The translations under genes were made by a program, and so were the position numbers. DNA of 64,000 bases from Escherichia phage vB_EcoM_SA20RB. Below the pieces are notes generated by a model, which worked only from the letters and a program-made list of their open reading frames with translations, had not been told where the DNA came from and made no database searches. This document shows, one piece after another, positions 2,429-54,228 of this stretch. The number at the start of each line of letters is the position of its first letter. The stretch's first letter is position 1. The stretch is from the sequence record OL960581; one strand, given 5' to 3'.

Positions 2429-2458
2429 ATTATACCACATCCTTGTGGTAAAGTAAAC
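2429..2458 (-). promoter_or_regulatory. T4-type early promoter (GTTTAC -35, TGnTATAAT -10)
   Basis: minus strand reads GTTTAC-17/18nt-TGGTATAAT; plus-strand attata 2429-2434, gtaaac 2454-2459. Confidence 0.6.
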
Positions 2459-4275: not shown

Positions 4276-4327
4276 CACTTATCCTCGTTTGGTTTCGGGA
4301 ATATTATACTCCAATAATCATAAAGCT

Positions 4328-15038: not shown

Positions 15039-15212
15039 TCAATCTTCAATGAAAACTTGTGCCAGGAATTCATGTTCATCTTTAATTTGTTTATATAAAG
15101 CCATTACAGCATTTATATTAGAGCTATCTACTTTAAGTTGATAAGCATACCACTCGTGTAAATTAATTAAAGCTTTTTGACGTCTAATAAATTCTTCTTT
15201 GGATATTTTCAT
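15039..15212 (-). CDS. small hypothetical protein (57 aa), not in ORF track
   Basis: ATGA overlap with upstream gene stop at 15209-15212; hand-translated MKISKEEFIRRQKALINLHEWYAYQLKVDSSNINAVMALYKQIKDEHEFLAQVFIED. Confidence 0.4.
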   Translation of the reverse strand: MKISKEEFIRRQKALINLHEWYAYQLKVDSSNINAVMALYKQIKDEHEFLAQVFIED

Positions 15213-15403
15213 TTTGAATGCTCTATAATTAATTTTAAAGCTTCTTCACTGACAAAAATTTCGTCATGACCTTCTGTAACTTCAACCATATGAAGCTGAT
15301 TAGTTAAGAGCTCACATACGAGCTCCTTGTTATAATCTTTAAATAGCTGGTCAATACGCTTCTTGCGGGCTTTCTTAAGCTGGCGCTTATTTAAACGAGC
15401 CAT
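15209..15403 (-). CDS. hypothetical protein (64 aa)
   Basis: ATG start; abuts gp56 stop. Confidence 0.45.
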   Translation of the reverse strand: MARLNKRQLKKARKKRIDQLFKDYNKELVCELLTNQLHMVEVTEGHDEIFVSEEALKLIIEHSK

Positions 15404-15921
15404 TAATAACCTCGGTCTTGACGTGCGAAATTTTCTGCATTTTTCAAATAATAAAGTTTAAAGATTTCTTCAGCAGTAAGACCAAGACCTTGGAACATAT
15501 TCAGAACGAAATGAAGAATATCAATCATTTCAAATTTAATTTCCAACTGGTCTTGCGGTGACAAATCAGTAATCAGAGTTTCACGGCGTTCACCATGTTG
15601 CGACTTCCAAGGTTTCCATACAGCAGATGCGTCTTTTTCACCATTACTCATACCACCAAGAGAAGTCAGAAGTTCACGGAATTCATCATCAATATAGTCT
15701 TTCTGATTACGTAGCCAATCAACAACTTCACCGGCAGTAGCCAAATCATCAGGATGACGGTTATATTCAGGTTTATCTTTAGCTAAACGAACCTGCAGAG
15801 ATTTCTGCATATCAAGCATAACCTGCAGCGGGTCTTTTTCATCACCGAGAATATCCCAGTATTCATTTTGAGCTTTATCAGCGCCTTCGATCAGTTGTGA
15901 ACATTCGTTAAAGTATGCCAT
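15403..15921 (-). CDS. 56: dCTPase/dUTPase gp56 (MazG-like, about 172 aa)
   Basis: start moved to ATG 15919-15921 (MAYFNECSQL..) with AAGGA SD; matches T4 gp56 length about 171; track ORF extends 31 codons upstream. Confidence 0.8.
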   Translation of the reverse strand: MAYFNECSQLIEGADKAQNEYWDILGDEKDPLQVMLDMQKSLQVRLAKDKPEYNRHPDDLATAGEVVDWLRNQKDYIDDEFRELLTSLGGMSNGEKDASAVWKPWKSQHGERRETLITDLSPQDQLEIKFEMIDILHFVLNMFQGLGLTAEEIFKLYYLKNAENFARQDRGY

Positions 15922-15992
15922 TATTTTTCCTTTCAATTCATGGGTTAGTAGATTAATTATACAATAAATATATAAAGCAATAAGGAGGACAT

Positions 15993-16193
15993 ATGGTACA
16001 AAAATTAATGGCACTTGTTAATGCCATCAAAGGTAATAAAAAACGTATAGCTTTTACTATTTCTGCTATGGTAGGAATTTTACTCTGGAACTTTATTTTA
16101 TCACCAATTGCAATTGCGCATGGTGTTAATATTCCAGTAGTTACTCTTGATACATTCGTAGATTTAGCATTTGCTCTAGTTGGGCTAATTTAA
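15993..16193 (+). CDS. small hydrophobic (membrane) protein, plus strand (66 aa)
   Basis: ATG 15993 preceded by strong SD taAGGAGGacat; two hydrophobic segments; convergent with gene 61 (4-nt 3' overlap). Confidence 0.5.
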   Translation: MVQKLMALVNAIKGNKKRIAFTISAMVGILLWNFILSPIAIAHGVNIPVVTLDTFVDLAFALVGLI

Positions 16194-17218
16194 ATCTTGG
16201 CATATTTAGATAGCCGCATTTTAGCCATTAACCCCTGGGCAATATTATTTTTCATATATTCCATAATTTGTTCAGGGGTTGCACCTTCCTTTCTAATCAT
16301 ATCATTGACATCTTTTGATTTCCAGGGAGATTTATCCCAAAACATAACCCTTTCTCCTGCATCAACTAATTTAGTCATTCGTTTGATAGTGTCAGGGTGA
16401 CGAGGTTCATTATCTAAAACCCACACTCGTCTATCTTTAAATGGAACAACTTCTAGGTCTAATTGACCGCCAGTAATGGCTATACCATTTTCAATAAAAA
16501 GTGAATCTATAGGTCCTTCTAGAACATATACATCACCATCTTTGACTCGTTCAACTCCATAGATTTTTGTTGCCTCAGGATAAGCTTTGATGGTGATATA
16601 TTTTTGAGGAGCATCTTTCTTTAATGCACGTCCTTGAAAAGACTCAGCTTTTCCATTAGCATTATAAATTGGAATAACAAGACGAGGCTCAGGTATTTCC
16701 TTTTTATATGTTCCTGGCGCTATACTGTTAACTAATTTAGGCCATTCAGTTGTAAACCAAAGATATTTCCATTTATCCTTTGGAATACAACGAGCTTTTA
16801 CATATTTTATAATTGGATGGTCTTCCGCCAGTTTATCTAATCTAATACATGACGGAAGAGATTTAATTATTTTCTTCTCAGGTTGTTTAGGAAGTTCTTT
16901 AGGTTTTTCTACTGGACGACTTTTACCTTTTTCTTTTCTTATTTCAAAGATATACTCACGATATAAATCAGGTTCAAACTCCTTTAAATATATTCCGATT
17001 GGTGCATGATAGTTGCAGTTATAACAATGAATATTTCCTTCATTATTATCGCCATAATACCATCCACGGGCTTTATTTTGATCGGTTTTTGAATCTCCAC
17101 AAACAGGGCATCTAAACCGTAATTTAAAAGTTGAACTATTATTTACTTGTGCGAATTTAGGCAAATGAGCTAATGCACGGTATGCAAACTCATTATCAAT
17201 CCAAGGTATTGATGACAT
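16190..17218 (-). CDS. 61: DNA primase gp61 (342 aa)
   Basis: zinc-ribbon CPVCGDSK..CYNCNYH, 342 aa as T4 gp61, ATG start. Confidence 0.85.
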   Translation of the reverse strand: MSSIPWIDNEFAYRALAHLPKFAQVNNSSTFKLRFRCPVCGDSKTDQNKARGWYYGDNNEGNIHCYNCNYHAPIGIYLKEFEPDLYREYIFEIRKEKGKSRPVEKPKELPKQPEKKIIKSLPSCIRLDKLAEDHPIIKYVKARCIPKDKWKYLWFTTEWPKLVNSIAPGTYKKEIPEPRLVIPIYNANGKAESFQGRALKKDAPQKYITIKAYPEATKIYGVERVKDGDVYVLEGPIDSLFIENGIAITGGQLDLEVVPFKDRRVWVLDNEPRHPDTIKRMTKLVDAGERVMFWDKSPWKSKDVNDMIRKEGATPEQIMEYMKNNIAQGLMAKMRLSKYAKI

Positions 17219-17220
17219 TT

Positions 17221-17385
17221 TTACTCTTCTTTTTCTTTAGATTCCTCTTTTTTCTTTTTAGGAATCTGTTCAGGACCTTTATTTACTACAGCACCTGACG
17301 TTGTTCCAGTAGAGATATTTTCAGGATTACCACCTGAATCTCCAGCTACCATATCTTCTTTAATAAATTCTTTAAACGTTTTCAT
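17221..17385 (-). CDS. small lysine-rich protein (54 aa), not in ORF track
   Basis: hand-translated MKTFKEFIKEDMVAGDSGGNPENISTGTTSGAVVNKGPEQIPKKKKEESKEKEE; stop 2 nt before gene 61 ATG. Confidence 0.4.
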   Translation of the reverse strand: MKTFKEFIKEDMVAGDSGGNPENISTGTTSGAVVNKGPEQIPKKKKEESKEKEE

Positions 17386-17397
17386 ATTAGCCTCTAA

Positions 17398-17691
17398 TTA
17401 TTCACCTACCACTTCAGCGATGATATTTTTATTATTAAAGTTTTTATCGCAATACAGAACATAATTATACTGCATTACACCACCAGACTTAAGCTGTTTT
17501 TGCACTTCGGCTTTCATTTCAGGACGATCACGCTCAACGATATTCATAATATCCGCTTCAATTTGAGTTTCAACCTCAGTCTGATCTGCAGTCATAGACC
17601 ATTCACACAAATCTTTGTCATAACCCGCCATAGCAGGCTGAGCAGTACAAGAAGCCAAAGCAAAAATTGCAGCAAAAACAAATTTTTTCAT
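17398..17691 (-). CDS. sp: periplasmic protein, Spackle (Sp)-like (97 aa)
   Basis: cleavable signal peptide (..PAMA); 97 aa; located between primase and helicase genes as T4 sp. Confidence 0.5.
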   Translation of the reverse strand: MKKFVFAAIFALASCTAQPAMAGYDKDLCEWSMTADQTEVETQIEADIMNIVERDRPEMKAEVQKQLKSGGVMQYNYVLYCDKNFNNKNIIAEVVGE

Positions 17692-17794
17692 GATAATCTC
17701 CTCAGTAGTTTATGTTTACAGTATCTCAATTTTCAACAAAAGTAAACACTAGTAGAAGTAAACAGACAAATTGCAATAATTGGTGATTTCAGTT

Positions 17795-17977
17795 TCATTC
17801 TTCTCCTCCTTCGTGTTGATGAACATATTCTTTTTCAAGTCTAGAGCACAAGTTTTCATATTCAACTAATAAAAATGAATCAAGTGCGTTATTTCTATGC
17901 TGACACCGTTCTTGTAAAGAATCCATCTCTGAACGTTGTTCTTGTGTTAATAATTGATAACCTGATACTTTAGACAT
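17795..17977 (-). CDS. hypothetical acidic protein (60 aa)
   Basis: ATG with GGAGAA SD; downstream of early promoter 18007-18036. Confidence 0.45.
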   Translation of the reverse strand: MSKVSGYQLLTQEQRSEMDSLQERCQHRNNALDSFLLVEYENLCSRLEKEYVHQHEGGEE

Positions 17978-18006
17978 TTTGTTCTCCGCGATTAGCTGAT
18001 AGAATT

Positions 18007-18036
18007 ACTATAACACAACTCTATCAGCTTGTAAAC
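18007..18036 (-). promoter_or_regulatory. T4-type early promoter
   Basis: plus actata 18007-18012, gtaaac 18031-18036. Confidence 0.55.
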
Positions 18037-18038
18037 TA

Positions 18039-18281
18039 CTATTTTACTAGCATCAATAACTGTTTCTCTAACTTGACGATTTTACGAAAGTATCTTTTGC
18101 ATTGGCGAATCTGCCTCTTCGTAGGACGTACAACAAACTTAATAAATTCCACTCGACCAAATGGAGGACTTTCTTCTGCTGGAATATCTAACACCAATTC
18201 CCACGTATCTGCAATAAGTGCTTTGAATTGCGTATTTTTCCTGACTTTATACGGAGTAGGTTTAAATAAAACAATATGCAT
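18039..18281 (-). CDS. hypothetical basic protein (80 aa)
   Basis: start moved to ATG 18279-18281 (GAGGA SD, directly after dmd stop); track start TTG 18323 would overlap dmd by 38 nt. Confidence 0.45.
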   Translation of the reverse strand: MHIVLFKPTPYKVRKNTQFKALIADTWELVLDIPAEESPPFGRVEFIKFVVRPTKRQIRQCKRYFRKIVKLEKQLLMLVK

Positions 18282-19960: not shown

Positions 19961-20323
19961 TTAAAAGAATTTAAATTTTTTCTTTGACCTTTTATTAAAC
20001 GCATCTTGTAGTTGCATTGTAATACATTTTTCTACATGAGGAGCTAACTCAGCTTTTCTTTCTTGGTCAAGAACAGCAAAGTCCATTACGACTTTTCCAT
20101 CAACCCAATCTAATTTTGTCACATACACAATGTGTGTAGAACCATCTTCTAGTTTAATGACAATCTCCTGGATAACATTTTCCATGGCAGATTTAATTAT
20201 CTTAAGAGATTCATTAAAAAGACGTTCTTTTCTTTCTTCTTCCCCCTCCGAAGAGGGGGATTCATCGATAATTTCTAGATCTAAATCTAAATCATCTTTA
20301 TTCATTAAATTCTTCCATATCAC
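19961..20323 (-). CDS. 40: hypothetical protein, T4 gene 40 position (120 aa; start uncertain)
   Basis: track start is GTG 20323 overlapping uvsX end; alternative in-frame ATG at 20305. Confidence 0.45.
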   Translation of the reverse strand: MIWKNLMNKDDLDLDLEIIDESPSSEGEEERKERLFNESLKIIKSAMENVIQEIVIKLEDGSTHIVYVTKLDWVDGKVVMDFAVLDQERKAELAPHVEKCITMQLQDAFNKRSKKKFKFF

Positions 20324-21479
20324 TTAACTGATCTAGGTCAGTTTCTAAATCAGCTGCTGATTTACTTTTACTTTCTGGAGATTTAAATTTTTCAACCTTT
20401 GAGTTAATCAATTCATCAACTTCAGCTTCAACAATTTCATTACTATCAATAGCACCTAACTGATAAGCATGTTTAATAGCATCTCGGAATGGTTGATGCT
20501 TAAATAAAGGACCCCAGAATGTAGTGCAGTTGGTATCTTTTGCACGCCAAGATTTTTCTTCGCGAATCATCTCGCCGGTTTCTTCGTCAAGAAATTCACG
20601 AGCATACCAGCCATTTTTAGGTTTTACCACAAATCCTAATTCAAGAGCCATATCTAACAATCCAGAATAAGGATCGATACCACCGTCAAATTTAACATCA
20701 ATAAAGAATTTACTTTTTTCTTTAACGGTACGAGATTTTTCTACATTTAGAACAAATTGATACCCCTGAAGATCAGAACCATCTTTAATCTGGCGCTTAC
20801 CGATAATGAATACAGTATCAGCCGAATACATTACGCCTGTACCACCTGTCATCACGGTTTTACTAAACATTTCAATTGTTTCAATTGTATGGTTAACCGC
20901 AACGCACGGAATGTTTTTAATACTAAAATAAGGAGTAACAATACGGAATAATGACTTCAGTGATTTAGCACGAGTCATATCTGCCACAGATTTTTCATTC
21001 AAGGCATCTTCCGTTTCTTTCTTAGAAGCCATATTACCGATTGAGTCGATGAATACAATAACCTTTTCACCACGCTCAATAGCTTCAAGCTGGTTCACCA
21101 TATCAATTTTCAGTTGTTCAACTGACTGAATTGGTGTATGAATTACTCGTTCCGGGTCAACTCCCATGGATCGCAAATAAGCAGGAGTAATACCAAATTC
21201 GCTATCATAGAATAGACAAACCGCGTCAGGATATTTGTTCAAATACGCCGCAACCATAGTCAAAGACATATTTGATTTAAAGTGTTTAGAAGGACCTGCA
21301 AAAATGGTTAAACCAGACTGCATACCACCATCAATCGCACCAGAAATAGCAATATTAAGCATTGGGATTTTTGTACGGATTACATCCTTTTCATTAAAGA
21401 ATTTAGATGTAGTCAGTTCAGCAGTCATTTTAGAAGTGGAAGCTTTAATCAAACGGGATTTTAAATCTGCAATAGACAT
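20298..21479 (-). CDS. uvsX: UvsX RecA-like recombinase (393 aa)
   Basis: ATG start; N-terminus SIADLKSRLIKASTSK..; RecA fold motifs; size near T4 UvsX (391). Confidence 0.85.
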   Translation of the reverse strand: MSIADLKSRLIKASTSKMTAELTTSKFFNEKDVIRTKIPMLNIAISGAIDGGMQSGLTIFAGPSKHFKSNMSLTMVAAYLNKYPDAVCLFYDSEFGITPAYLRSMGVDPERVIHTPIQSVEQLKIDMVNQLEAIERGEKVIVFIDSIGNMASKKETEDALNEKSVADMTRAKSLKSLFRIVTPYFSIKNIPCVAVNHTIETIEMFSKTVMTGGTGVMYSADTVFIIGKRQIKDGSDLQGYQFVLNVEKSRTVKEKSKFFIDVKFDGGIDPYSGLLDMALELGFVVKPKNGWYAREFLDEETGEMIREEKSWRAKDTNCTTFWGPLFKHQPFRDAIKHAYQLGAIDSNEIVEAEVDELINSKVEKFKSPESKSKSAADLETDLDQLSDMEEFNE

Positions 21480-21532
21480 TCATTTTTTCCATAGGCATCA
21501 TTATATTTTCCTCACTGGTTAAAGATAGAGTA

Positions 21533-21556
21533 ATTATAACACAATAAATTTAGGCA
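21533..21556 (-). promoter_or_regulatory. possible middle promoter (MotA-box-like TGCCTA + TATAAT) upstream of uvsX
   Basis: minus strand aaTGCCTAaa-12nt-TATAAT; MotA box is one mismatch from TGCTTA. Confidence 0.3.
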
Positions 21557-22399
21557 TTAATCAACTGCTATCGGATGAATAGCATTAAACTTATGAAACG
21601 CTTCTGATTTTTCTTTGCGCGAAACACACATGCGAAGAACCTTTAATGGCTCGTCTTCTTCACCCAACGATTTTCTCTTTTCAATATTCGATGTTTTCCA
21701 ACGAGCTTGCTCTGGAAACTCTCTATTGATTTGCTCAAGAGCTCTATTATGTTTTGAATTACTACGAATTGAACTACATCCGCCAGGAGCTTGCGCTTTT
21801 CCGGATACAACCAGATATTTGAACAAGGCCAAATGCGGATAACCTTGATTAATTAAATTGAGAAATGCATACATATCTTCGCATAAATCAATTTTTCCAT
21901 ACCCAATTTGTTCTGTTGTAAGTTTCCCGAGGTCATACCAAGTATTCGTGAATCCATATGAATTTTCACGATAATTACCCCAAGATGAAGTAATTTTAAA
22001 AATAGGCAGACGAGCATGACCATGATAATACCCGCAATCCATGGCATCTTCAACGTATTGAATCAATTCATAGAACTGTTCACGAGTTAATTGATTAATT
22101 TTATCTACGCAGCGACGATCATCTTTCTTTCGCATTGAACTCATACGAATAGTAGTATCATCATCAATCATCCAAATTCGTTGACCTGCATACATATCAG
22201 TAATTGCTTTACGAGTACCAGCAATTCCATTAACATCATCAGGAATAGTTATAATTTTAGCTCTAGACCCGTAAGCGTCATAATAAGCTTTTTCTTCGTG
22301 TTCACGTACTACAATATGAGGTTCATAATCAGTCGGAAACATATCAAGGGCAGAAACTGCCCCGACACGCTGATAACTTGGAATTACGAATTGAATCAT
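21557..22399 (-). CDS. putative glycosyltransferase at the T4 beta-gt locus (280 aa), possibly T2/T6-type beta-glucosyl-HMC alpha-glucosyltransferase
   Basis: start at ATG 22397-22399 (ATGA overlap with gene 42 stop); DxD-like MIDDDT motif; 280 aa rather than T4 b-gt 351 aa. Confidence 0.5.
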   Translation of the reverse strand: MIQFVIPSYQRVGAVSALDMFPTDYEPHIVVREHEEKAYYDAYGSRAKIITIPDDVNGIAGTRKAITDMYAGQRIWMIDDDTTIRMSSMRKKDDRRCVDKINQLTREQFYELIQYVEDAMDCGYYHGHARLPIFKITSSWGNYRENSYGFTNTWYDLGKLTTEQIGYGKIDLCEDMYAFLNLINQGYPHLALFKYLVVSGKAQAPGGCSSIRSNSKHNRALEQINREFPEQARWKTSNIEKRKSLGEEDEPLKVLRMCVSRKEKSEAFHKFNAIHPIAVD

Positions 22400-23136
22400 T
22401 TCCACTCACCTTTATAATCTTTTTTCACAATATGAGTTTCGCCAGTATTCCACCAATGATCAACCAAGTAAAAATGACGAAAATATACATGAAGACTTCC
22501 AACATTCCATATAATAGAACCTGCTTTATACTGACGAGTTGAATCGCCTGCATTCAAGTCAGATACTAATTTATCTAGTACGTATTTTTGCCATGCATAA
22601 TCATTACGGAATCCGAAGACCACGTCATTTGAACGCATGCTTACTACTGCATTGACTTTCTTATCACGAATCAGGTACTGCACTGTATTAGTACACATGA
22701 AATCTGACATACCATCTTTATTGTAGTCAAACTGCATGGATGGACGAGTATAAATCATGATACCACGCCGAGAATCAGGATTTTGACCAAGTTCAGCTAA
22801 ACACATATCATACTGGGCATAGTTATCTTCTGACCAGATGGCCCAACCATAATTCGAGTTAATTTCGCCTTTAGAAGATGCTACCTGCTGCCAAATCTTT
22901 GGTGTTTCACCCGGAATATCTTTAACAAACAAACTTTTAGATTTATACCATTCAAGTTCACGTTGAATGTATTCATCATTAAGAGCGCCAAAAATAAACG
23001 GTTCATCTGCTACAAATGATGCACCAATAATTTCAATAGTTTTAACACCAGTTTTATCAACTACGAAATCTTTTTCTTTTAATGCAAGCCCCAAATGAAG
23101 ACGGATTTCTTCAACTGTCATAGAGTCACTAATCAT
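22396..23136 (-). CDS. 42: dCMP hydroxymethylase gp42 (246 aa)
   Basis: 246 aa, thymidylate-synthase-like; ATG start. Confidence 0.85.
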   Translation of the reverse strand: MISDSMTVEEIRLHLGLALKEKDFVVDKTGVKTIEIIGASFVADEPFIFGALNDEYIQRELEWYKSKSLFVKDIPGETPKIWQQVASSKGEINSNYGWAIWSEDNYAQYDMCLAELGQNPDSRRGIMIYTRPSMQFDYNKDGMSDFMCTNTVQYLIRDKKVNAVVSMRSNDVVFGFRNDYAWQKYVLDKLVSDLNAGDSTRQYKAGSIIWNVGSLHVYFRHFYLVDHWWNTGETHIVKKDYKGEWK

Positions 23137-23289
23137 TTAAACCTCAATTGATACATTCATATTTAACTTGTAACAGTAATAAACCCCAACCTATAATAAG
23201 TGTCGGAATCATACAAGGAACCGTTACGCTATAGTATATACTTATTATAATCATCAAGATTAAAAGCAATACTGTTAAAATTTTGCTTT

Positions 23290-23541
23290 TCATTCCTTCT
23301 CTCTGATGATAATTACTTGATTCGGTTGTGCAGATTTTTTAGTTTCACCCGCAATTGACCAAATAAATGTAATAAACCAACCAATAATTGACCAATTAAA
23401 CAGTAAAGATGTGAAAAAGATTCCTACTGTCGATTTTGACCCACGCATCAAGGCGATGAACCACGGAAGCATGTATATAATAATAGCCAACACGCCTGAA
23501 ACTAAAACCATAAAAATTGAACCTGCTACTAAAGTTTCCAT
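23290..23541 (-). CDS. imm: immunity (superinfection exclusion) membrane protein Imm (83 aa)
   Basis: 83 aa, two hydrophobic helices; position after gene 42. Confidence 0.7.
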   Translation of the reverse strand: METLVAGSIFMVLVSGVLAIIIYMLPWFIALMRGSKSTVGIFFTSLLFNWSIIGWFITFIWSIAGETKKSAQPNQVIIIREKE

Positions 23542-23548
23542 GTTTTCC

Positions 23549-23929
23549 TCACTTAGTCAAATTTTTTACACATGAATTATAAGAATTCACTACATACTCC
23601 ATCGGAGCATTTTTACCTGTACGCCATTGGTAATTATTAGCCCAATTAGCCCAAATTTCGGCGCAGTAGTTTTCAATTTTTTCTTCGCGTGTAATTACAT
23701 CCGAATTACGATATGCTTGAGCAGATTCGTCTGGACGAATAGCTTCGTCAAAATTCGCCTGCATTTGTTCTACTGTCTGTTTTGGAGCCTCTTTATAACA
23801 CTTGACGTTAGGATTATAAAATTTGCTTGAACAGTTTACAATTTTTCCTGCATCAGACTGATTTACTACCGGTCCTTGAGCTACACAGCCAGTAAGACCC
23901 AATGTAATAACCAAAATAGCAATTTTCAT
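23549..23929 (-). CDS. putative lipoprotein (126 aa)
   Basis: signal peptide with LTGC lipobox; ATG start. Confidence 0.5.
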   Translation of the reverse strand: MKIAILVITLGLTGCVAQGPVVNQSDAGKIVNCSSKFYNPNVKCYKEAPKQTVEQMQANFDEAIRPDESAQAYRNSDVITREEKIENYCAEIWANWANNYQWRTGKNAPMEYVVNSYNSCVKNLTK

Positions 23930-23939
23930 AATAATTTCC

Positions 23940-24197
23940 TCAAATACAAGTAGTAATTACTCCAGTAGTGCTTACACAGGTATTACCTAATTGAACACCA
24001 AGCGTTCCATTAGTATTCATATGAAGATTATCATCAATTTTTGTTGATACTTTACCATTCATGTGAATAACAGTATTAGATTCAATCACATTCTGAGTGT
24101 CATTTTCAATATCAATAAATGGAACAGCTGCTAATGCAACTAGAACAACTGCTAATGCAACTAAACACGCTGCTAAACAACCATAAACAATTTTCAT
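23940..24197 (-). CDS. small membrane-anchored protein (85 aa)
   Basis: start moved to ATG 24195-24197 (GGAG SD) inside conserved promoter cassette; track ORF runs upstream through promoter and terminator. Confidence 0.45.
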   Translation of the reverse strand: MKIVYGCLAACLVALAVVLVALAAVPFIDIENDTQNVIESNTVIHMNGKVSTKIDDNLHMNTNGTLGVQLGNTCVSTTGVITTCI

Positions 24198-24240
24198 TTT
24201 ATTCTCCAAATCCGTATCAGTTGATAGTTGTATAGTACCA
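24191..24240 (-). repeat. 50-bp leader block (-10 region to ATG) of repeated early-promoter cassette, copy 1
   Basis: identical to 52652-52701. Confidence 0.7.
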
Positions 24241-24261
24241 TGGAAGAACAGAGATGTAAAC
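24232..24261 (-). promoter_or_regulatory. T4-type early promoter (cassette copy)
   Basis: plus atagta 24232-24237 (TACTAT -10), gtaaac 24256-24261. Confidence 0.5.
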
Positions 24262-24344
24262 CGTTTTGTGAAAAAATTTTTAATGAATTTACAGGACCTA
24301 GAATCATCTATTTTTCCTAAGTATAGATTTATATTACTTGTATG

Positions 24345-24365
24345 AAAAAGGGACCCGGAGGTCCC
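24345..24365 (-). terminator. rho-independent terminator after gene 43
   Basis: gggacc-cgga-ggtccc hairpin followed by U5 on minus strand. Confidence 0.6.
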
Positions 24366-24378
24366 TAGATTTATTCTA

Positions 24379-27075
24379 TCAGCCAAACAGGAAGTCTAAC
24401 GAAGCTTTTTCCTCATAGTCCATACCTGCCGATTCACACATACCCGCAAGTGGTTTAACAAACGATTTTTGGAACAAAGTTGAGTAGTCAATCCAAGACA
24501 GTACGTCAGAACGAATTTCTTTTGGAAGTTCTGTGCCTGATGGCCAAGCAATGCACTTGTCACCAAATGGATTTCCTTCACGTAATGGAAGAACCATTAC
24601 CTTATTTCCATCCAAAATTGGAGCTACACCTAAACCACTAACAGCTCGACGATAAGTTAGTACGCCACGAATATGGAACGGGCATTTAAATCCTGGCCAA
24701 CCTTTATCATCATATTTCGCTATATCGTTCGCAGTTTTTACTTCAGCAATAACTTTATAGTCAAGTTGACGATATTCTTTCTCAAAGTTCTTGTAGTATT
24801 CTTGGACAGACTCTTCACCTTCCTGAAGAATACGACGAATACTTTCTTCGAGAGCTTCTTGTACTGCTTTTGGTGTTGAACTCTGTTGAGTTTCCATACC
24901 CATAATTTTTAGATGCGGTTCGGCAAATCGCTTATCTTCCATATCATAAACGTTCAGAGCATAACGTTTTTTCGCTTTCCAAAATCCACCAACACCCTTT
25001 GAACCAAGCGGAGGGCAAGAAATAGCTTCACGGTCCATATGCATCAGATGCTCGCGGTTATTCATATAGTCACATAACTCACGATATGCAACATCAATCA
25101 TAGGTTCCATCTTTTTCTTACCAAACTGATTCATGAATTCAACTAAATCATTTTGTTCTTTAAAGCGATCAAGACCTACTTTTTCAATAACTTTATCTAC
25201 ACAAACATATACCGAATCAGTATCACCTGCTGCGATGAAATCTTCACCATTAGTTCCACATACTTTATTCAGATATTCATTAATTTTGCGAGCAATCCAC
25301 TGAATACCGACTTGACCGAAAATTGTGATAGCAGTAGCATTTCGCAAATCATAGTAACGGAAATGAATATTACCAAGAGCACCATAAAGACTGTTAATAA
25401 GAATTTTACGGTTCAGCTGATTTGTGTTAGCAAGTGTAGCTGCTTTTTCACATTCTTCGATCAGACTATTAAGAACAGATTCGGTGTAATTCGATAATTC
25501 GTTTAAGAAATCATCACTGAACTTAACATATCGTTCAACTTCTGGTTTAGTTGAACAAGACCCTGCACCTTTCATAATAATCTTTTTAATAGCTTCGGCA
25601 TTCATTTCTTCAGCGAACATTTTCTTTTTCCAATCTTTACGCTGGAAAAATACTTTAGCGATTTCCTTTGGAATGATACCTTCTTGGTGCTTATCATACA
25701 TCCATCCATTCGGAGAGCAAGAATATTCATCACTTGGCTTAGGAGCTGTTCCTGCGATATATTCATGAATTGGATGAACTTTAAACTGCCCACGAATAGT
25801 CTCAGGACTAATGTTAACCTGACGAATAATGCTAGGATACAGAGACGTCAAGTCAAAACTCATAATGTATCGACGAGCAATCGGTTTAGGTTCAAACACA
25901 AATGCACCTGGAAAACTCTGTTTAACGTGTGAACCTTGTTGAGGAATAACCTTATGTTCACCTTTCAGTGAGTTAAAAATAATAGCATCCCAAGTTTTAA
26001 TAGGACTCATTACACCAGAAAAAGGCATTTTAGCGTAATAAGACATACTTAAAACTAGATCGATAAACCCACGAATTTTATCAATTGCTTGAACTGATTC
26101 TACGTCAATGATGTTATAACTAATGTATCGTTGATGATTAGTCTCACGAAGTTTATTAATAGGACCATCGTACGGTAATTTACCTTTTTTGGTTTCATGT
26201 TGAGCAACTGATTCCAAAGAGAACGATGGCAAATTAGTAAATGCGAATTTCTTGTACAAATCTAAATAATCAAGAATAGATACGCCATCAATAGAATAAA
26301 TTTCTTTGCTACCGTACATATTTTGAATTAGTTTAGATTTTACCCGACCGATTGGAGAGAAGCGTTTCATACTGCGTTCACCGAGAACCATTTTAACACG
26401 GTTCATGATATACGGAACGTCAAATCCCTCAATATTCCAACCGGTAAAAATAGCAGGTCGTTTCTGTTCCCAGAGATTAATATATTCCATGAGCATATCA
26501 CGCTCATTATCAAATGGCATATAAATTACTCGGTCAAGAATTTCTTGAGGAACTTCATCACCACCTTCACAGTCAAGCTTAGCAGCTAACTTTGCATCCC
26601 ATTTTGATACTGAACCGTACATTGAATTCAACAAATCAAAGACGTAAAAACGATCGTCAATTGAATCATAATGAGTGATAGCATCAATTTCATATTCTGC
26701 TTTCATTGGGTCAGGAAATTTATCACCAGTAACCTCAATGTCACAGTTAGCTACACGAACAAATTTTCGGTCATAAACAATTTCTGAACCATATGTATCA
26801 CTGATATAAGCGAGTTTAAAATCGTTCATACCGAGAGCTTCGAGACCGATGTCTTCCATTCGCTTCATCCAGTCTCGTGCATCTTTCATTGATGGAAATT
26901 TTTGAGGAGCACAATTTTTACCATAAATGTCTTTGTATTTTGACTCTTCCTTACAATGCCTAAACATAGTCGGAAGATATTCTACTTCACGAGTACGTTC
27001 CTTTCCGTTTTCATCAATATAACGCTCAACAATATTATTTCCGACTGTTTCGATAGAGATATAAAATTCTTTCAT
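24379..27075 (-). CDS. 43: DNA polymerase gp43 (family B, 898 aa)
   Basis: 898 aa; exonuclease and polymerase motifs (YGDTDS); ATG start. Confidence 0.9.
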   Translation of the reverse strand: MKEFYISIETVGNNIVERYIDENGKERTREVEYLPTMFRHCKEESKYKDIYGKNCAPQKFPSMKDARDWMKRMEDIGLEALGMNDFKLAYISDTYGSEIVYDRKFVRVANCDIEVTGDKFPDPMKAEYEIDAITHYDSIDDRFYVFDLLNSMYGSVSKWDAKLAAKLDCEGGDEVPQEILDRVIYMPFDNERDMLMEYINLWEQKRPAIFTGWNIEGFDVPYIMNRVKMVLGERSMKRFSPIGRVKSKLIQNMYGSKEIYSIDGVSILDYLDLYKKFAFTNLPSFSLESVAQHETKKGKLPYDGPINKLRETNHQRYISYNIIDVESVQAIDKIRGFIDLVLSMSYYAKMPFSGVMSPIKTWDAIIFNSLKGEHKVIPQQGSHVKQSFPGAFVFEPKPIARRYIMSFDLTSLYPSIIRQVNISPETIRGQFKVHPIHEYIAGTAPKPSDEYSCSPNGWMYDKHQEGIIPKEIAKVFFQRKDWKKKMFAEEMNAEAIKKIIMKGAGSCSTKPEVERYVKFSDDFLNELSNYTESVLNSLIEECEKAATLANTNQLNRKILINSLYGALGNIHFRYYDLRNATAITIFGQVGIQWIARKINEYLNKVCGTNGEDFIAAGDTDSVYVCVDKVIEKVGLDRFKEQNDLVEFMNQFGKKKMEPMIDVAYRELCDYMNNREHLMHMDREAISCPPLGSKGVGGFWKAKKRYALNVYDMEDKRFAEPHLKIMGMETQQSSTPKAVQEALEESIRRILQEGEESVQEYYKNFEKEYRQLDYKVIAEVKTANDIAKYDDKGWPGFKCPFHIRGVLTYRRAVSGLGVAPILDGNKVMVLPLREGNPFGDKCIAWPSGTELPKEIRSDVLSWIDYSTLFQKSFVKPLAGMCESAGMDYEEKASLDFLFG

Positions 27076-28088: not shown

Positions 28089-29048
28089 TCACTTCCACTG
28101 CATTTCGCATGCTAATTGAATGAAAAGATATGCTAAATGTAATTCCGTATTAGCCGCAATTCCATGATACTGGTTATTTTCACCAACAATTTCATACATA
28201 CGAATAATACTTTGCGGAGTTACGCGTGTATAGATTTCTTCGGCAAGTTTACCTACGAACCACGAATAATCAGCTGCATATTTTGGTGCTAAAGCTCTGA
28301 GCTGTTTAACATCTTTATTTTTGAGAGATTCAAGAACATCATCAATAGCACCACGATCGTTAGTAACCAGTGATAAAATACCAGCATCCAAAACACCTTT
28401 AGATGAATAACTATCGAGCTCACCAATAGTTTTACGAAAATCCGGAAAATTCTTTTTAACCAAAGCTGCTACAACTTTCATATCAGCTATAGCAATTCCT
28501 TCATGCTTGCAGATTTCAGTCAATCGACGAATCATCTGCTTCATCATTTCAATTTTATCTTCATCAGTCGGTTGACCGAATGTAATAACTCGGCAACGTG
28601 ACTGAAGCGGTTTAATAATACCATCAATATTGTTAGCAGTAATAATAATACTACAGTTTGAACTATAAGCTTCCATAAAGGAACGAAGATGTCGCTGAGA
28701 CTCTGCTAACCCTGAGCGGTCAAATTCATCAATAACGATTACTTTTTGACGACCATCAAATGAAGCTGCACTAGCAAAATTAGTCAAAGGACCACGAACG
28801 AAATCAATTTTACAGTCTGATCCATTCACAAACATCATATCAGCATTTACATCATGACACAATGCTTTTGCTACAGTTGTTTTACCTGTTCCTGGAGAAG
28901 GAGAATGAAGAATAATATGTGGAATTTTACCTTTACTTGTAATAGATTTAAAGGTTTCTTTATCAAAGGCGGGAAGAATACATTCATCGATAGTAGATGG
29001 ACGATATTTCTGTTCAAGAATGTGTTCTTTTTCATTTACAGTAATCAT
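28089..29048 (-). CDS. 44: clamp loader ATPase gp44 (319 aa)
   Basis: start moved to ATG 29046-29048 (MITVNEK.., GAGGAAA SD); Walker A GTGKTT; track start TTG 29063. Confidence 0.85.
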
Positions 29049-29080
29049 AATTTCCTCATTCAAGTTTTAGTGTAAATTAT

Positions 29081-29098
29081 AAAGGGCCGAAGCCCTTT
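29081..29098 (-). other. UUCG-tetraloop stem-loop between genes 45 and 44
   Basis: aaagggc-cgaa-gcccttt. Confidence 0.5.
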
Positions 29099-29099
29099 A

Positions 29100-29786
29100 T
29101 TAAAAGTCGTGGGTAGAATCAGCTTCAAGAGCTACTACATAATTCGCATGTTCACCTTCAAATTTAGCAGCGCCTTGTTTACCTTTTGCCCAGAGCAGAA
29201 GTTTATAATTTCCTGGTTGCATTTTCATATTTGCCATATTGATAATGAAATTAAATGTATTTTCACCATCATAATCACCAAGAGTCAAAGAATATTTAAC
29301 ACGGGTCAAAGCAGAATCTTCTACTTTATTAAAACCGTTAATTACGATTTTACCTTCTTTTACTGTGATAGCAATTGTATCAATCTGCAGACCGCGAGAT
29401 ACACGCAACAGCTGTTGAAGGTCTTCAGCTTTAATTTCGGTAACAACAGATGCTACCGGGAATGGAATTGGTTTATTAGGAGCAACTACTGTACTCGGAT
29501 CGGCTGCTGGCCAAAAAATTGTTGAACGGGCATCAGCAATTTTAATATTTCCATCTTCTGACTGGGAAATTTCTGCATCATCATTAACTAGAGACAGAAT
29601 ACCGAGAAAACCGTTCAAATCGTAAATCGCTACATCAAAATCAATAGTGTCAGAAATATTTGCTTCCGCATAAGTTGTACCATTAACTGCGCGAGTCATA
29701 ATAAATTGACCAGATTTAAGCATAATACCAGAGTTAATAGTAGCGAAATTTTTGAGCAGAGCAGTAGTATCTTTAGACAGTTTCAT
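29100..29786 (-). CDS. 45: sliding clamp gp45 (228 aa)
   Basis: 228 aa, ATG start. Confidence 0.85.
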   Translation of the reverse strand: MKLSKDTTALLKNFATINSGIMLKSGQFIMTRAVNGTTYAEANISDTIDFDVAIYDLNGFLGILSLVNDDAEISQSEDGNIKIADARSTIFWPAADPSTVVAPNKPIPFPVASVVTEIKAEDLQQLLRVSRGLQIDTIAITVKEGKIVINGFNKVEDSALTRVKYSLTLGDYDGENTFNFIINMANMKMQPGNYKLLLWAKGKQGAAKFEGEHANYVVALEADSTHDF

Positions 29787-29841
29787 GTAATTTCCTTCAA
29801 TTCAAATGAGATTTAATTTTATAACTAATTTAATAAAGCAA

Positions 29842-30231
29842 TTAACGATTAAAATCGGCAGCAATTGTTTCCGCAACAATTTGAGCAGCAACAATTAGAC
29901 GTTCATCTGCATTACCACAATAATCATCTTCAAGGCGTTCACCACATGAAGTCATAATAAATTTAGCACCAGCATTTAAAGATTCTGTCGTATGTTTGCG
30001 CATTAGTTCAATCCATTTATTACTTACTTCACGATCGATAGCTTCATAATACGCATGACGAGCAGGTGCAGATTTAATTTTGCTCTGAATAACTTCCATC
30101 GCGTTATCAGAAAGAGACAAAACCCATGCTCGACGAATTTTATTTTGGTTTTGTGGATTTGATTCAGAACGCACGTGTTTTGGCTGAATATCTTTTACAT
30201 CAACAGTATAATTCACAGTAATTTTAGTCAT
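29842..30231 (-). CDS. rpbA: RNA polymerase binding protein RpbA-like (129 aa)
   Basis: 129 aa; position after gene 45 as in T4. Confidence 0.55.
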
Positions 30232-30240
30232 AATACACCT

Positions 30241-30429
30241 TTAGTCATAATAATCAGTAACAGTCCAAGCTTCATTTCTGTTGGACATTATTTTCGTATA
30301 TTCTGCTTTAAATGCATTCTTAAGCATAGATTCAGTAACTATATGCTCTTCATTAGAAAAATTATTTCTCAGAATATATCGTTTTATTTCAGGAATAGTT
30401 AATAGATGCTGTCCAGTTGAATATTCCAT
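30241..30429 (-). CDS. hypothetical protein (62 aa)
   Basis: ATG start. Confidence 0.45.
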   Translation of the reverse strand: MEYSTGQHLLTIPEIKRYILRNNFSNEEHIVTESMLKNAFKAEYTKIMSNRNEAWTVTDYYD

Positions 30430-32614: not shown

Positions 32615-33630
32615 TGTGTTGCCTCTACATATAACTGATTTGCATATTGAATAAGTGCTTCGCGATCAGAATCAGTGATGTCTGGAATTGCATTAATGTA
32701 TTCTTCCATCAACGTCTGAAGAGATTGAACTTCAACTTCTTCACTATCATCTGACTCGACAGAGTTATCAATCTTTGACACAACTCGTAATGAATGCACA
32801 ACTTTTTCTAGTTCAGATTCGAACTTCGTCAGATTTTTGTCTACTTCAGTTACTATAACACGCACTGACAGATTTGTAAAATCTTTATAGTCAATTTTTC
32901 CCTTAAATGGATATTGAATTCGACGATGCCAAGTAGTGTTGTTTGGAATAAATTCCATTCGTTCTGTTTCTGTATCAAACATCCAGAACCCACGAGGGTC
33001 ATTCTCGTCACCCGCAGTTAGTGTCCATGGTGTCCCAATATATCTGACGTTAGCAGCCTCAGAGATAGTATGGAAGTGACCAGACCACACTTCTTTGTAA
33101 GTCTTAAGGAAATCAGGTTCAAGACCGTGAGATTTCATTCCTTTATAAAAATAAAATCCATTCAGTTCCCAGTGACCAACACAAAAAGAAGCAGATGAAG
33201 TTTTGATGTGTTCAAGAATTTCACCAGTGTTTTCTTCACACATCCAAGGAATTAAATCAATCAAACATCCGTCAAAATCTACTGTAGTAGGCTTATCATA
33301 TACTTTAACATTAGGATATTTAGCCAAAAGCTCAGTAGAAGCATTTGGATGCATTACATTTTTATAGTGGAGATCGTGATTTCCTACAATAGTATGTAAT
33401 GTGATTCCAGCGGCATCAAGCATTTGAACTATTTCACGGGCAAACTCCATAGTTTTATGCGTGATCGCTTTTCGTACATCAAAAATATCACCGTATTGAA
33501 TCCATACAGTAATTCCATTTTTCTTAGAATATTCTATCGCTTGCTTAATTCCATCAATTTGAATACCGCGAATCCATTCATCATCAGCTTTAACGCCTAA
33601 ATGCCAATCACCCAAGTTTAGTATTTTCAT
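32611..33630 (-). CDS. 47: recombination nuclease gp47 (Mre11/SbcD-like phosphoesterase, 339 aa)
   Basis: phosphoesterase motifs LGDWHLG and GNHD; 339 aa. Confidence 0.85.
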   Translation of the reverse strand: MKILNLGDWHLGVKADDEWIRGIQIDGIKQAIEYSKKNGITVWIQYGDIFDVRKAITHKTMEFAREIVQMLDAAGITLHTIVGNHDLHYKNVMHPNASTELLAKYPNVKVYDKPTTVDFDGCLIDLIPWMCEENTGEILEHIKTSSASFCVGHWELNGFYFYKGMKSHGLEPDFLKTYKEVWSGHFHTISEAANVRYIGTPWTLTAGDENDPRGFWMFDTETERMEFIPNNTTWHRRIQYPFKGKIDYKDFTNLSVRVIVTEVDKNLTKFESELEKVVHSLRVVSKIDNSVESDDSEEVEVQSLQTLMEEYINAIPDITDSDREALIQYANQLYVEATQ

Positions 33631-34231
33631 GGTGTCTTTTCCATCCTAATTTAGCTGCTTTTGAAACTAGTTCTTTAATTTTTCCTTTTGTCCATTCAGG
33701 ACCAGGAGGTTCATGACATAACATTTGCTTAACTCCGTTATTATACCATTTTTTACCTTTATTATGTGATGAAGCTTTAAATTTATTTGACCTTCCTTTT
33801 ACATAACCTTCTGGAATATACGGTAAAAAGGCAGATTTTCCTGTTAATGGGTCATGTGAATGTATGTTTCCTTTACAATTATGAGAACCATATAATGGAT
33901 GATTTTGTCCTTTAATATCTCTTCCAAATGAACCTTTTGGAGCAGCATATGACATATTAAAGAATAATGGATTTTTAACCGCATCATGCAAACGTTGATA
34001 ATATAGCTCGCATTTAATAGCTTCTTCGCGTGTATCAAATTCATCTAAAATGCATGAATCAAATAAATGTGGGTTATTTGAAAGTTCTTCATTATAAATT
34101 TTCTTATACTTTTTAGATAAAACTGATCCATGATATCCGGCTAAATGCCTGTCTAAAGATGTAGATCCAATATAAAAAGGAGGAAGTTTATCTCCACTAT
34201 ATATTGTTAAATAAGTTATATATTTTTTCAT
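33608..34231 (-). CDS. GIY-YIG homing endonuclease-like protein (seg-like, 207 aa)
   Basis: YITYLTIYSGDKLPPFYIGSTS (GIY-YIG), conserved Arg/Glu downstream, NUMOD3-like GKKWYNNG; overlaps gene 47 start by 23 nt. Confidence 0.6.
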   Translation of the reverse strand: MKKYITYLTIYSGDKLPPFYIGSTSLDRHLAGYHGSVLSKKYKKIYNEELSNNPHLFDSCILDEFDTREEAIKCELYYQRLHDAVKNPLFFNMSYAAPKGSFGRDIKGQNHPLYGSHNCKGNIHSHDPLTGKSAFLPYIPEGYVKGRSNKFKASSHNKGKKWYNNGVKQMLCHEPPGPEWTKGKIKELVSKAAKLGWKRHHENTKLG

Positions 34232-34410: not shown

Positions 34411-35610
34411 TTTTGTAATAATGTCAAACTGTTCTTTAAAGCAGAAGCTTGAATCTTGATGCTGATACAAAAATTCATAAGCTTTTTCGCGTTCACGGTC
34501 ATAAAGAGCTCGGTCAGATGACAGTTCTTTAATACGTTCAAATGTTGATTCCATGTCATTTTCATCAAACCAAACGATACCGCTATCATGAGAAATTAAC
34601 GGAGTATTATCAACACGGAATTTTAAATTTTCGCCAGTAGATTTCCAAAATACTGGAATTGTTCCACATGCACCAAGCTCGAGATGAGTATATTCTAAAG
34701 AACGTTGTAGATATTTTTTGTCCAACTTACTCAGCTGATAACCAAATCCGGATTTACTCATGCGCTCAAGCATTTCGCTATTTACATAACGGTCAAGAAT
34801 TTGCGTTGGCAAATTAGGAGCAATTTTAATTTGGTCTACTTGATGAAGACGATAATACTCGTATGGAATTCCTTTTTCTTTAATAGGAATGAACGCAGGA
34901 GAACGTTCCAGACCTTCCATAATAGTACTTAGCCCAGCAGGTTTAAGATGTTTTTCGTGAAAATCAAACATCTGATAAAAACCTTTCCATGTAGTCGTAC
35001 GACCAATCCAACGGTTGACATTCATGTTAATTTCAGAAACATCTTTCCAGTAGGTTGATCGAACCTTCGCAATATCCATAGGAGGCTGAAAGTTGTATAC
35101 AGTCGGTGCTTCTTCAATATCATCAAACAGAGAAACTGTTTCTGGATACCATTCTTTCATCAAAACTTTATTAAAATCACCATTATCAGAATGACTAAAA
35201 ATAACATCAGCTCGACGAACAGTTTCTTCTAATCCCAAATTTCGGCGCAAAGAAAGAGAAGAATGGTCATGTTGATAAACTACAACACGAACTGAAGGTT
35301 TAATGTTATCAATAATTTTTTTATAGTTATTAATAGTGTCTTCTTCGACTGAAGTAGCAGGAACTGAATTGATAATTAGAATATCACAATCATTTACCAG
35401 CTTAAGTGTTTTATCGTATTCTTTTGCCAATAAAACCGGAATTGAAAATGATTTATAATCATGCGCGCAATTACGAGTAAATGATTTATCTTTAGCATAA
35501 ACCAAAGTTACTTCATGACCATTTTTAATAAACCAATCACGCTGCTCGAGAGAAAATTTAGTTACGCCGCAACCTTCAAGACCTCGAGCCATAAAAATAC
35601 ATACTTTCAT
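34408..35610 (-). CDS. a-gt: alpha-glucosyltransferase (400 aa)
   Basis: 400 aa as T4 a-gt; position between 47 and 55. Confidence 0.75.
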   Translation of the reverse strand: MKVCIFMARGLEGCGVTKFSLEQRDWFIKNGHEVTLVYAKDKSFTRNCAHDYKSFSIPVLLAKEYDKTLKLVNDCDILIINSVPATSVEEDTINNYKKIIDNIKPSVRVVVYQHDHSSLSLRRNLGLEETVRRADVIFSHSDNGDFNKVLMKEWYPETVSLFDDIEEAPTVYNFQPPMDIAKVRSTYWKDVSEINMNVNRWIGRTTTWKGFYQMFDFHEKHLKPAGLSTIMEGLERSPAFIPIKEKGIPYEYYRLHQVDQIKIAPNLPTQILDRYVNSEMLERMSKSGFGYQLSKLDKKYLQRSLEYTHLELGACGTIPVFWKSTGENLKFRVDNTPLISHDSGIVWFDENDMESTFERIKELSSDRALYDREREKAYEFLYQHQDSSFCFKEQFDIITK

Positions 35611-39650: not shown

Positions 39651-40121
39651 TTAATCATGTTTCCACACCCCATCGGTATTTGACCAAAGTCGCTGATTAT
39701 CTGATCCTCGCCACAGCTTTTTGGTAGGAAGATTTTTCTCATACTTCCCATCAATAATAACATCAACATATTTAAGCATTTCTAGTTGTTTAATATCTTC
39801 AAATTTATATCCTGTCCACAACCAAATGCTTTTATTGGAATAAAGATTTTTTACTGTTTGAACCACAGAGTGAATAACATCTCGGTTATCAGGATAGAGA
39901 GGGTCTCCTCCAGTTATAGTTAATCCTTCTATATAATCATTATTCAAACATTCAATTAATTGTTCTAGTGTTTCACCAGTGAATGGAACACCATTTCTAG
40001 CATTCCATGTTGATTTATTATAACACCCTTCGCATTTATGCAAACAACCTGTAACGAAAAGAACTGTCCTGCATCCAGGACCATTAACAAAGCAGCATGG
40101 GTATATTCTGTCATAATTCAT
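39651..40121 (-). CDS. nrdG: anaerobic ribonucleotide reductase activating protein NrdG (radical SAM, 156 aa)
   Basis: Cys cluster CLHKCEGC; 156 aa; ATG start. Confidence 0.8.
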   Translation of the reverse strand: MNYDRIYPCCFVNGPGCRTVLFVTGCLHKCEGCYNKSTWNARNGVPFTGETLEQLIECLNNDYIEGLTITGGDPLYPDNRDVIHSVVQTVKNLYSNKSIWLWTGYKFEDIKQLEMLKYVDVIIDGKYEKNLPTKKLWRGSDNQRLWSNTDGVWKHD

Positions 40122-40950
40122 TTATATATTTCCAATTATAGCCTTCAACACTTTTACGTTCGCCATTTAAACATTTTAAAATATTTCCTTTGCTAGAAAT
40201 ATTAAAATATTTTGCTGCGTCTGGTATATAATTAAATGTTTTTAAAAGAACACCATCTTTATATGCGCCAAATAAATTAAGAGTATATTTTTCTCGAAGA
40301 CGCTGATGTTTCCTTTTCATAACCTCAGGATTTGCATACGCCAACCTCAATGAATTTCTATGTTTTTCTTTTACTTCAGGTTTTTGCATTGCTAACTTAG
40401 TTAGCCTGGAAATTTTATTTCTAACTTCGTCAGTTTTCATTGCATTTGACAAATTTAATAAAGTTTTATTTCTAACTTCAGGTTTTTGCATTGCTAACTT
40501 AGTTAGTTCTCTATGTCTTTTTCTAAAATCGTCATCCTTCCATATATTTTTCGATAATTTTGACATAGAGCGGTGAAATAATTCCTTTTCACTGGAATAC
40601 AATTTAAAAATTTCATCCAATTCATCCGCATTAAATCTATCGGTATTCGAGTTTATCATTCTATGAAAGGCATAACACATTTTACTATTGCTTGTTTTAG
40701 CTAAATAGTAATGAGCTAACGCATGGTCATAATATGACAAATTAACAATATTCCATTTATCTGTTTTATATTCAGGAAATATAGATTTGGGAAGCACGTG
40801 ATGTGCTTCCGTTTTTCCTTTTATTTTAGGATTATTATAATTTTTTGTTATCAAATCAACATATGACAATAGTAAATCATTATTTTCTTCAAATATTAAA
40901 GCTAATTTATCATTCACAAAATCGCAAGGATAAAATCTATCGTAATTCAT
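40111..40950 (-). CDS. HNH homing endonuclease-like protein (mob-type, 279 aa)
   Basis: HNH motif AHHVLPKS..YYDHALAHYY; repeated KLAMQKPEV modules; ATGA overlap with nrdD stop. Confidence 0.6.
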   Translation of the reverse strand: MNYDRFYPCDFVNDKLALIFEENNDLLLSYVDLITKNYNNPKIKGKTEAHHVLPKSIFPEYKTDKWNIVNLSYYDHALAHYYLAKTSNSKMCYAFHRMINSNTDRFNADELDEIFKLYSSEKELFHRSMSKLSKNIWKDDDFRKRHRELTKLAMQKPEVRNKTLLNLSNAMKTDEVRNKISRLTKLAMQKPEVKEKHRNSLRLAYANPEVMKRKHQRLREKYTLNLFGAYKDGVLLKTFNYIPDAAKYFNISSKGNILKCLNGERKSVEGYNWKYINEL

Positions 40951-43271: not shown

Positions 43272-43809
43272 ACTCATACGCCTGGAATGCATCGTATACG
43301 TCTTTTTCTGTTTTAGACTGGGCATAATTCAACGCATCAGCGATTTGCCATTTTTCTGCATCCTCAATATGTTTTGCATAGGTGCGTTTAACATAAGGAG
43401 AAAGTACTTTATCTACATTAGCAAAAGTCGTTCCGCCGTACTGATGTGAAGCAACCTGTGCAGTAATTTGTGCCATAATTGCAGTAGCAACGCCAATTGA
43501 TTTAGGAGTTTCAATCTGTGCATTGCCGAGCTTAAATCCGTTCTCAAGCATTCCTTTTAAATCTACTAAACAGCAATTAGTAAATGGAAGAGCAGGGGAA
43601 TAATCAATATCGTGGAAATGGATAATTCCGCTTTCATGCGCTTTCATAATAAAAGACGGGACCATATTTTTGGCAATGTGTTTAGACACAATACCAGCCA
43701 TAAGGTCCCGTTGAGTTGGAAAAACACGAGAATCTTTATTAGCATTCTCGTTCAAAAGGTCTTTATTAGTTTTATGAATCAATCCTTCAATTTCTTTTTC
43801 AATTGTCAT
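43272..43809 (-). CDS. nrdD: anaerobic ribonucleoside-triphosphate reductase NrdD, exon 1
   Basis: ATG 43807-43809 (ATGA overlap with gene 49 stop); reading frame hits TAA immediately inside intron. Confidence 0.7.
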
Positions 43810-54226: not shown

Positions 54227-54228
54227 AA

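Follow-up and report, generated by a model that had tools for sequence, protein, structure and literature searches.

A T2/T6-like glycosyltransferase gene between uvsX and gene 42 of Escherichia phage vB_EcoM_SA20RB

In a 64,000-nucleotide stretch of Escherichia phage vB_EcoM_SA20RB (sequence record OL960581; hereafter the window), the open reading frame (ORF) between uvsX and gene 42 is, with high confidence, the orthologue of the ba-gt gene (also ggt or TAGT) of phages T2 and T6. The encoded protein would be a ~32-kDa, DxD-dependent, inverting GT-A glucosyltransferase that makes gentiobiosyl-hmC. The gene is already known: it is named, has been studied genetically and lies at a known position with known partners. 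It was reportedly sequenced in both T2 and T6 in the 1990s, in a paper of 1993, and has been the subject of genetic study since 2024, so nothing described here is new biology. Identity, locus, fold class, motif and partner genes were established in the present analysis, while the chemistry and the defence phenotypes come from the literature on T6.

Identity and locus of the 280-residue protein

The protein is identical to that of phage T2 at 276 of 280 residues (99%) and to the annotated T6 ggt product at 256 of 261 (98%). Its identity to the corresponding products in Shigella phage pSs-1, phiC600P9 and ZCEC15 is 100%. It was assigned to PHROG 842 ('beta-glucosyl-HMC-alpha-glucosyltransferase') at 5.6e-89 and to the Pfam family PF20691 TAGT (TET-associated glycosyltransferase) with 38.8 bits against a gathering threshold of 27.5, with residues 3–207 aligned to positions 2–205 of the 205-position profile, that is, to the whole domain. 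No similarity to T4 beta-gt was detected by BLASTP (best E = 3.4), T4 beta-gt used as a tblastn query found no match anywhere in the 64-kb window, and Pfam PF09198, the T4 beta-glucosyltransferase family with the GT-B fold, did not match the protein. The first-pass annotation had proposed that a glycosyltransferase different from that of T4 occupies this locus, had given 280 residues as the size of the T2/T6 enzyme and had named BLASTP against both enzyme types as the check. The searches above place the protein with the T2/T6 type and not with T4 beta-gt, and the size of 280 residues is correct for T2. No NCBIfam model matched ba-gt or a-gt, and a sequence search of the PDB with the window protein returned chance matches only (E > 0.7) and no TAGT structure. 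A Pfam RNA_binding match, below the cut-off at E = 0.15, was rejected as chance.

The map position given at first reading, from uvsX to gene 42, was confirmed by identification of both neighbours through identity to T4 and Pfam, and the coordinates and the length of 280 residues are exact when counted from the ATG at 22399 (Table 1). On the minus strand the ORF extends over 21557..22405, which gives 282 residues from a GTG. The ATG of ba-gt (22399–22397) overlaps the TGA stop codon of gene 42 (22398–22396) by 4 nt as ATGA, and a GGTGAG lies a few bases 5' of the ATG. This overlap points to co-transcription of ba-gt with gene 42, and the two genes may also be translationally coupled. Promoter and terminator scans of 21300–23600 stayed at chance level: promoter-like sites numbered 12 where 10.0 were expected, and the single terminator-like site equalled the expectation of 1.0. 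Because synonymous codon differences far outnumber non-synonymous ones in comparison with both the T2 copy (39 versus 4) and the T6 copy (33 versus 6), the ORF is considered a real, intact gene under purifying selection. Its base composition is ordinary for the region.

Table 1. Coordinates of ba-gt, its sequence motifs, its flanks and its partner genes in the window
Feature	Coordinates	Strand	Evidence
ba-gt / ggt / TAGT, probable beta-glucosyl-HMC-alpha-glucosyltransferase, 280 aa	21557..22399	-	ORF, T2/T6 identity, PF20691, PHROG 842, GT-A/GT2-like predicted fold
Codons D79-D80-D81, DxD metal and nucleotide-sugar binding motif	22157..22165	-	Sequence, family conservation
MIDDDT, residues 77-82 of the ba-gt protein	22154-22171	-	Sequence
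Arg11 codon CGT, last residue of the IPSYQR motif that follows strand beta-1	22367..22369	-	Family-invariant; His only in T2
Segment without T4 nucleotide match, 946 bp	21468..22413	.	blastn against T4 1-72000
uvsX recombinase, downstream flank	20298..21479	-	90% to T4 UvsX; Pfam T4_UVSX_C, RecA
Gene 42, dCMP hydroxymethylase (makes the hmC precursor), upstream flank	22396..23136	-	96.7% to T4 gp42; Pfam Thymidylat_synt
a-gt, DNA alpha-glucosyltransferase	34411..35610	-	98.75% to T2 a-gt, 90.75% to T4 a-gt; Pfam AGT PF11440, 782.7 bits
Gene 56 dCTPase/dUTPase homologue, excludes dCTP	15406..15921	-	73% to T4 gp56 over 172 aa

Over its first ~67 kb, counted from the rIIA end, T4 is colinear with the window. 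The 946-bp segment occupies the place of T4 23556–25496 (1,941 bp, comprising segA and b-gt), and its flanks are colinear with T4 at 93.8% and 94.9% identity (blastn); T4 SegA had no match in the 64-kb window. The difference from T4 between uvsX and gene 42 is a clean cassette swap. The arrangement uvsX–ba-gt–gene 42 is common to the window, T2 and T6.

Several other parts of the window also differ from T4. The window (15039–18057, compared with T4 15606–17625) has neither dam, the DNA adenine methyltransferase gene, nor segF, and tblastn with T4 Dam and SegF found nothing; of the Durham phages, those without a Dam-like gene had the higher gentiobiosyl level, which is a correlation only (PMC13390438). 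At 2458–4278 (minus strand) a single 606-residue ORF covers T4 genes 39 and 60, and T4 2794–3910 (the part of gene 60 with the translational bypass element, 60.1 and mobA) has no counterpart in the window; the large topoisomerase subunit therefore appears to be unsplit. A 207-residue ORF that is absent from T4 (33608–34231, minus strand) lies between genes 47 and 47.1, immediately upstream of a-gt. Its match to GIY-YIG is weak (E = 9e-4) and does not reach the Pfam cut-off, and it probably encodes a Seg-like homing endonuclease. At the mobC position, a 279-residue ORF for a Mob-like endonuclease (40111–40950, minus strand) is 27–38% identical to T4 MobB, MobC and MobD, with a further, weak match of the I-HmuI NUMOD-like type, and T4 mobB and mobD are absent from their T4 positions. 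The place of mobD is taken by ORFs of 148 residues (probably a membrane protein) and 173 residues (53780–54750, minus strand) with no T4 nucleotide match. The nrdD gene (40947–43809, minus strand) appears to be split as in T4, into ORFs of 443 and 181 residues; with its 56% identity to T4 I-TevII, a 256-residue ORF between these parts (42253–43023) points to an intron whose homing endonuclease has diverged. At the place of T4 ipII/ipIII, a 157-residue ORF (62632–63105, minus strand) is 33% identical to IPII over 79 residues. Internal proteins can act against restriction, so this ORF may bear on the arms race in which DNA glucosylation also takes part.

Predicted fold and family conservation

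An AlphaFold2 model of the window protein was obtained with moderate confidence (mean pLDDT 70.7, pTM 0.75), four loops falling below pLDDT 50. Structure matches of the model in the PDB were GT-A/GT2-type enzymes only (AvpGT, WrtF, RmlT, TarS, SpsA and K4CP), with E values of 1e-5 to 1e-4 and TM scores of 0.41–0.51, and the fold is accordingly predicted to be GT-A, GT2-like and Rossmann-like. GT2-type enzymes invert the anomeric carbon, and an inverting GT2-like fold would fit the formation of a beta-linked product from UDP-alpha-glucose. Published modelling of the T6 TAGT likewise gave a GT-A enzyme, as sister group to GT2 (PMC13216743).

Conservation was assessed across the wide TAGT family. 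Searching 1.84 billion representative proteins with a profile returned 2,146 family clusters at E <= 1e-3, and the window protein was aligned with 151 of the best representatives (152 sequences in total, with a median identity to the window protein of 22%). D80, D175 and G207 are conserved in 152/152 sequences, G206 in 151 and R212 in 149. The first-pass annotation had read MIDDDT as a DxD-like motif, and this reading is supported by the alignment and the model alike: D79 and D81 are conserved in 150 and 145 of the 152 sequences, and the DDD of residues 79–81, invariant among close homologues, stands at the end of a beta strand, directly after model strand 74–79, as does the DxD of GT-A enzymes. 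R11 is conserved in all 150 sequences without a gap at that position and belongs to the seven best-conserved residues of the TAGT family. In GT2 enzymes, the loop after strand beta-1 takes part in nucleotide-sugar binding.

DNA glucosylation pathway and the level of gentiobiosyl-hmC

The genes for hmC and the first sugar (gp56, gp42 and alpha-gt) are all present in the window. In the proposed pathway, gp56 and gp42 would supply hmdCTP and the polymerase would put hmC into DNA. The alpha-gt would add an alpha-glucose to hmC to give the acceptor for ba-gt, which would move a second glucose from UDP-glucose to the 6-OH of the alpha-glucose in beta linkage, yielding gentiobiosyl-hmC. The gentiobiose is joined to hmC through the alpha link, which alpha-gt makes first. 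Sites of hmC out of reach of alpha-gt, ~25% in T2 and T6, would stay bare, and bare hmC is expected in the window phage because the 64 kb of its genome covered by the window contain no T4-type beta-gt. The second sugar would hide alpha-glucosyl-hmC from defences that recognise it, among them the Brig1 glycosylase and BapA.

These steps follow what has been reported for T6 and its relatives. The T2/T6 enzyme attaches a beta-1,6-linked second glucose to alpha-glucosylated hmC to form gentiobiosyl-hmC (PMC13216743, PMC6024577), and a T6 delta-ba-gt mutant contains alpha-glucosyl-hmC only, with gentiobiosyl-hmC lost (PMC11078745). The same mutant is more sensitive to Brig1, whereas wild-type T6 DNA is not degraded by it (PMC11078745). 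DNA of T6 delta-g-gt is a substrate of the glucose-removing BapA, and wild-type T6 DNA is not (bioRxiv 10.64898/2026.02.25.707755). In Tequatroviruses with alpha-GT and TAGT and without beta-GT, LC–MS detected hmC, alpha-glucosyl-hmC and gentiobiosyl-hmC, and no beta-glucosyl-hmC (PMC13390438). For the window phage, we predict alpha-glucosyl- and gentiobiosyl-hmC, no beta-glucosyl-hmC and about one-quarter of hmC unglucosylated. This supports the first-pass annotation, which had proposed gentiobiosyl in place of simple beta-glucosyl modification if the enzyme is of the T2/T6 type. The gene sets the sugar pattern on phage cytosines and therefore affects which host defences see the DNA; those concerned are Brig1-type glycosylases, the BapA glucosidase, the GmrSD/BrxU type IV enzymes and, on bare hmC, McrBC.

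The share of gentiobiosyl-hmC varies widely, from ~5% in T2 to ~72% in T6 (PMC13390438, PMC6024577, PMC11078745), and is ~40% or ~67% in phages of the Durham set (PMC13390438). The amount cannot be read from the gene being present, since the T2 enzyme is 99% identical to that of the window and yet T2 reaches only 5%. Across T2, T6 and the window, the private residues are R11H and P251S in T2, Y40N, D55G and R106H in T6, and R92K and V101I in the window. Across the wide TAGT family, positions 40, 55, 92, 101, 106 and 251 vary. P251S was rejected as the cause of the T2 phenotype: Pro251 is near-invariant in 10 close homologues, yet this conservation does not extend to the wide family. By short-peptide tblastn, which a His11 accompanied by a second nearby change would escape, the exact N-terminal 40-mer and C-terminal 43-mer of T2 occur in only 8 of ~686 phage records with the gene (7 of T2, and SV76).

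We infer that DNA of the window phage is highly gentiobiosylated, like that of T6 and not like that of T2, because none of the family-invariant positions, Arg11 among them, departs from the consensus in its enzyme. Tentatively, R11H may make T2 a natural hypomorph and so cause the gap between 5% and 72%, in which case phages with Arg11 would be highly gentiobiosylated. No statement that R11H causes the T2/T6 difference was found in the literature searched, and the Arg11/His11 observation is possibly useful for understanding why the two phages differ.

An enzyme that is present in the window phage and weak as in T2, leaving mostly alpha-monoglucosylated DNA with a few percent of gentiobiosyl-hmC, appears unlikely. 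The window protein is slightly nearer to that of T2 (276/280) than to that of T6, the window a-gt shares its closeness to T2 (98.75%), and T2 itself shows that such a phage can stop at 5% (PMC6024577, PMC11078745). However, the window keeps the arginine found in 150/150 family sequences, the R11H change is private to T2, and exact T2 termini are limited to the 7 T2 records and SV76. The residues K92 and I101 that set the window apart lie at variable positions, and every non-T2 phage with alpha-GT and TAGT that has been measured contains 40–72% gentiobiosyl-hmC (PMC13390438).

We consider it very improbable that the gene encodes a TAGT-family enzyme with another donor or acceptor, such as another sugar or bare hmC directly. 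The size and diversity of the family (the 2,146 clusters above) would allow for this, and the many phages that carry TAGT alone or together with beta-GT suggest more than one specificity within it (PMC13216743). Against such a change of specificity stand the 98–99% identity to the T2/T6 enzymes, whose function is known from T6 deletion mutants, and a locus and partner genes that are the same as in T2 and T6. A divergent or truncated T4-type beta-glucosyltransferase making beta-glucosyl-hmC, which would share with T4 b-gt the map position only and could draw on the swapped names of the two genes in some database records, is refuted for practical purposes by BLASTP, by tblastn and by a predicted GT-A fold as opposed to the GT-B fold of T4 beta-gt (PMC13216743).

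Distribution and comparison with known systems

By tblastn, the window protein was found in 689 phage records and reached >= 95% identity in 471, whereas T4 beta-gt was found in 126, only 29 of them at >= 90% identity. With ~470 near-identical ba-gt records against ~29 T4-type beta-gt records, T4 is the exception, and ba-gt at this slot is the majority state of Tequatrovirus and no peculiarity of the window phage. A scan of IMG/VR yielded no more than 5 near-identical loci, a number that does not support statistics, and the short-peptide tblastn counts and the search of 1.84 billion representative proteins were used in its place. In a published survey, T4 was nearly unique in having alpha-GT and beta-GT, most such phages carried one of them plus TAGT, and all three glycosyltransferases were present in only 1 of 753 phages (PMC13216743).

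Two observations on database records were made alongside. In the Escherichia phages of the G3F6–G3G7 group, G2540 and KMB26, a beta-gt-like gene apparently lies directly beside a TAGT copy (MZ234039/MZ234040), an adjacency inferred from similar coordinates in two sister records; in this type, the beta-gt-like gene is at ~29295–30362 (55% to T4 b-gt) and TAGT at ~28447–29283 (96.8% to the window). In GenBank, T4-type b-gt is mislabelled 'beta-glucosyl-HMC-alpha-glucosyl-transferase' in several records, for example, those of RB55 and RB59.

The ggt/ba-gt gene of T2 (AP018813 22282–23124; MH751506 ggt) likewise encodes 280 residues in the same slot and, as in the window, overlaps gene 42 by 4 nt. 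Its product has His11 and Ser251, found in T2 alone, where the window has Arg11 and Pro251, and R92 and V101, in common with T6, where the window has K92 and I101. The gene of T6 (ba-gt, g-gt or TAGT; MH550421 ggt), at the same locus as in the window, is the genetically characterised member; its product shares Arg11 and Pro251 with the window protein and differs by N40, G55 and H106, all at variable positions. The T6 record MH550421 (~22923–22979) has TAG at ggt codon 10, compared with CAG in the window and CAA in T2, and its ggt coding sequence is annotated from Met20 (261 residues), a start that would leave the product without strand beta-1 and without the invariant Arg11. Either a nonsense mutation in the sequenced stock or an error in the record accounts for this TAG.

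T4 b-gt (351 residues, GT-B) sits beside gene 42 at the corresponding map position and also uses UDP-glucose to form a beta linkage on DNA, but it is unrelated in sequence and fold, acts on bare hmC instead of alpha-glucosyl-hmC, and is accompanied by the segA homing endonuclease gene, which is absent from the window. Cellular GT-A enzymes of the GT2 family (SpsA, TarS, TarP, RmlT, K4CP and WrtF) have in common with the window protein the predicted fold, an N-terminal IP(S/T)Y..R loop and the DxD, and inverting chemistry is expected of the window protein as of these enzymes. Identity is 10–15% and the TM score 0.4–0.5, and, unlike in the cellular enzymes, the acceptor of the window protein would be a sugar on DNA.
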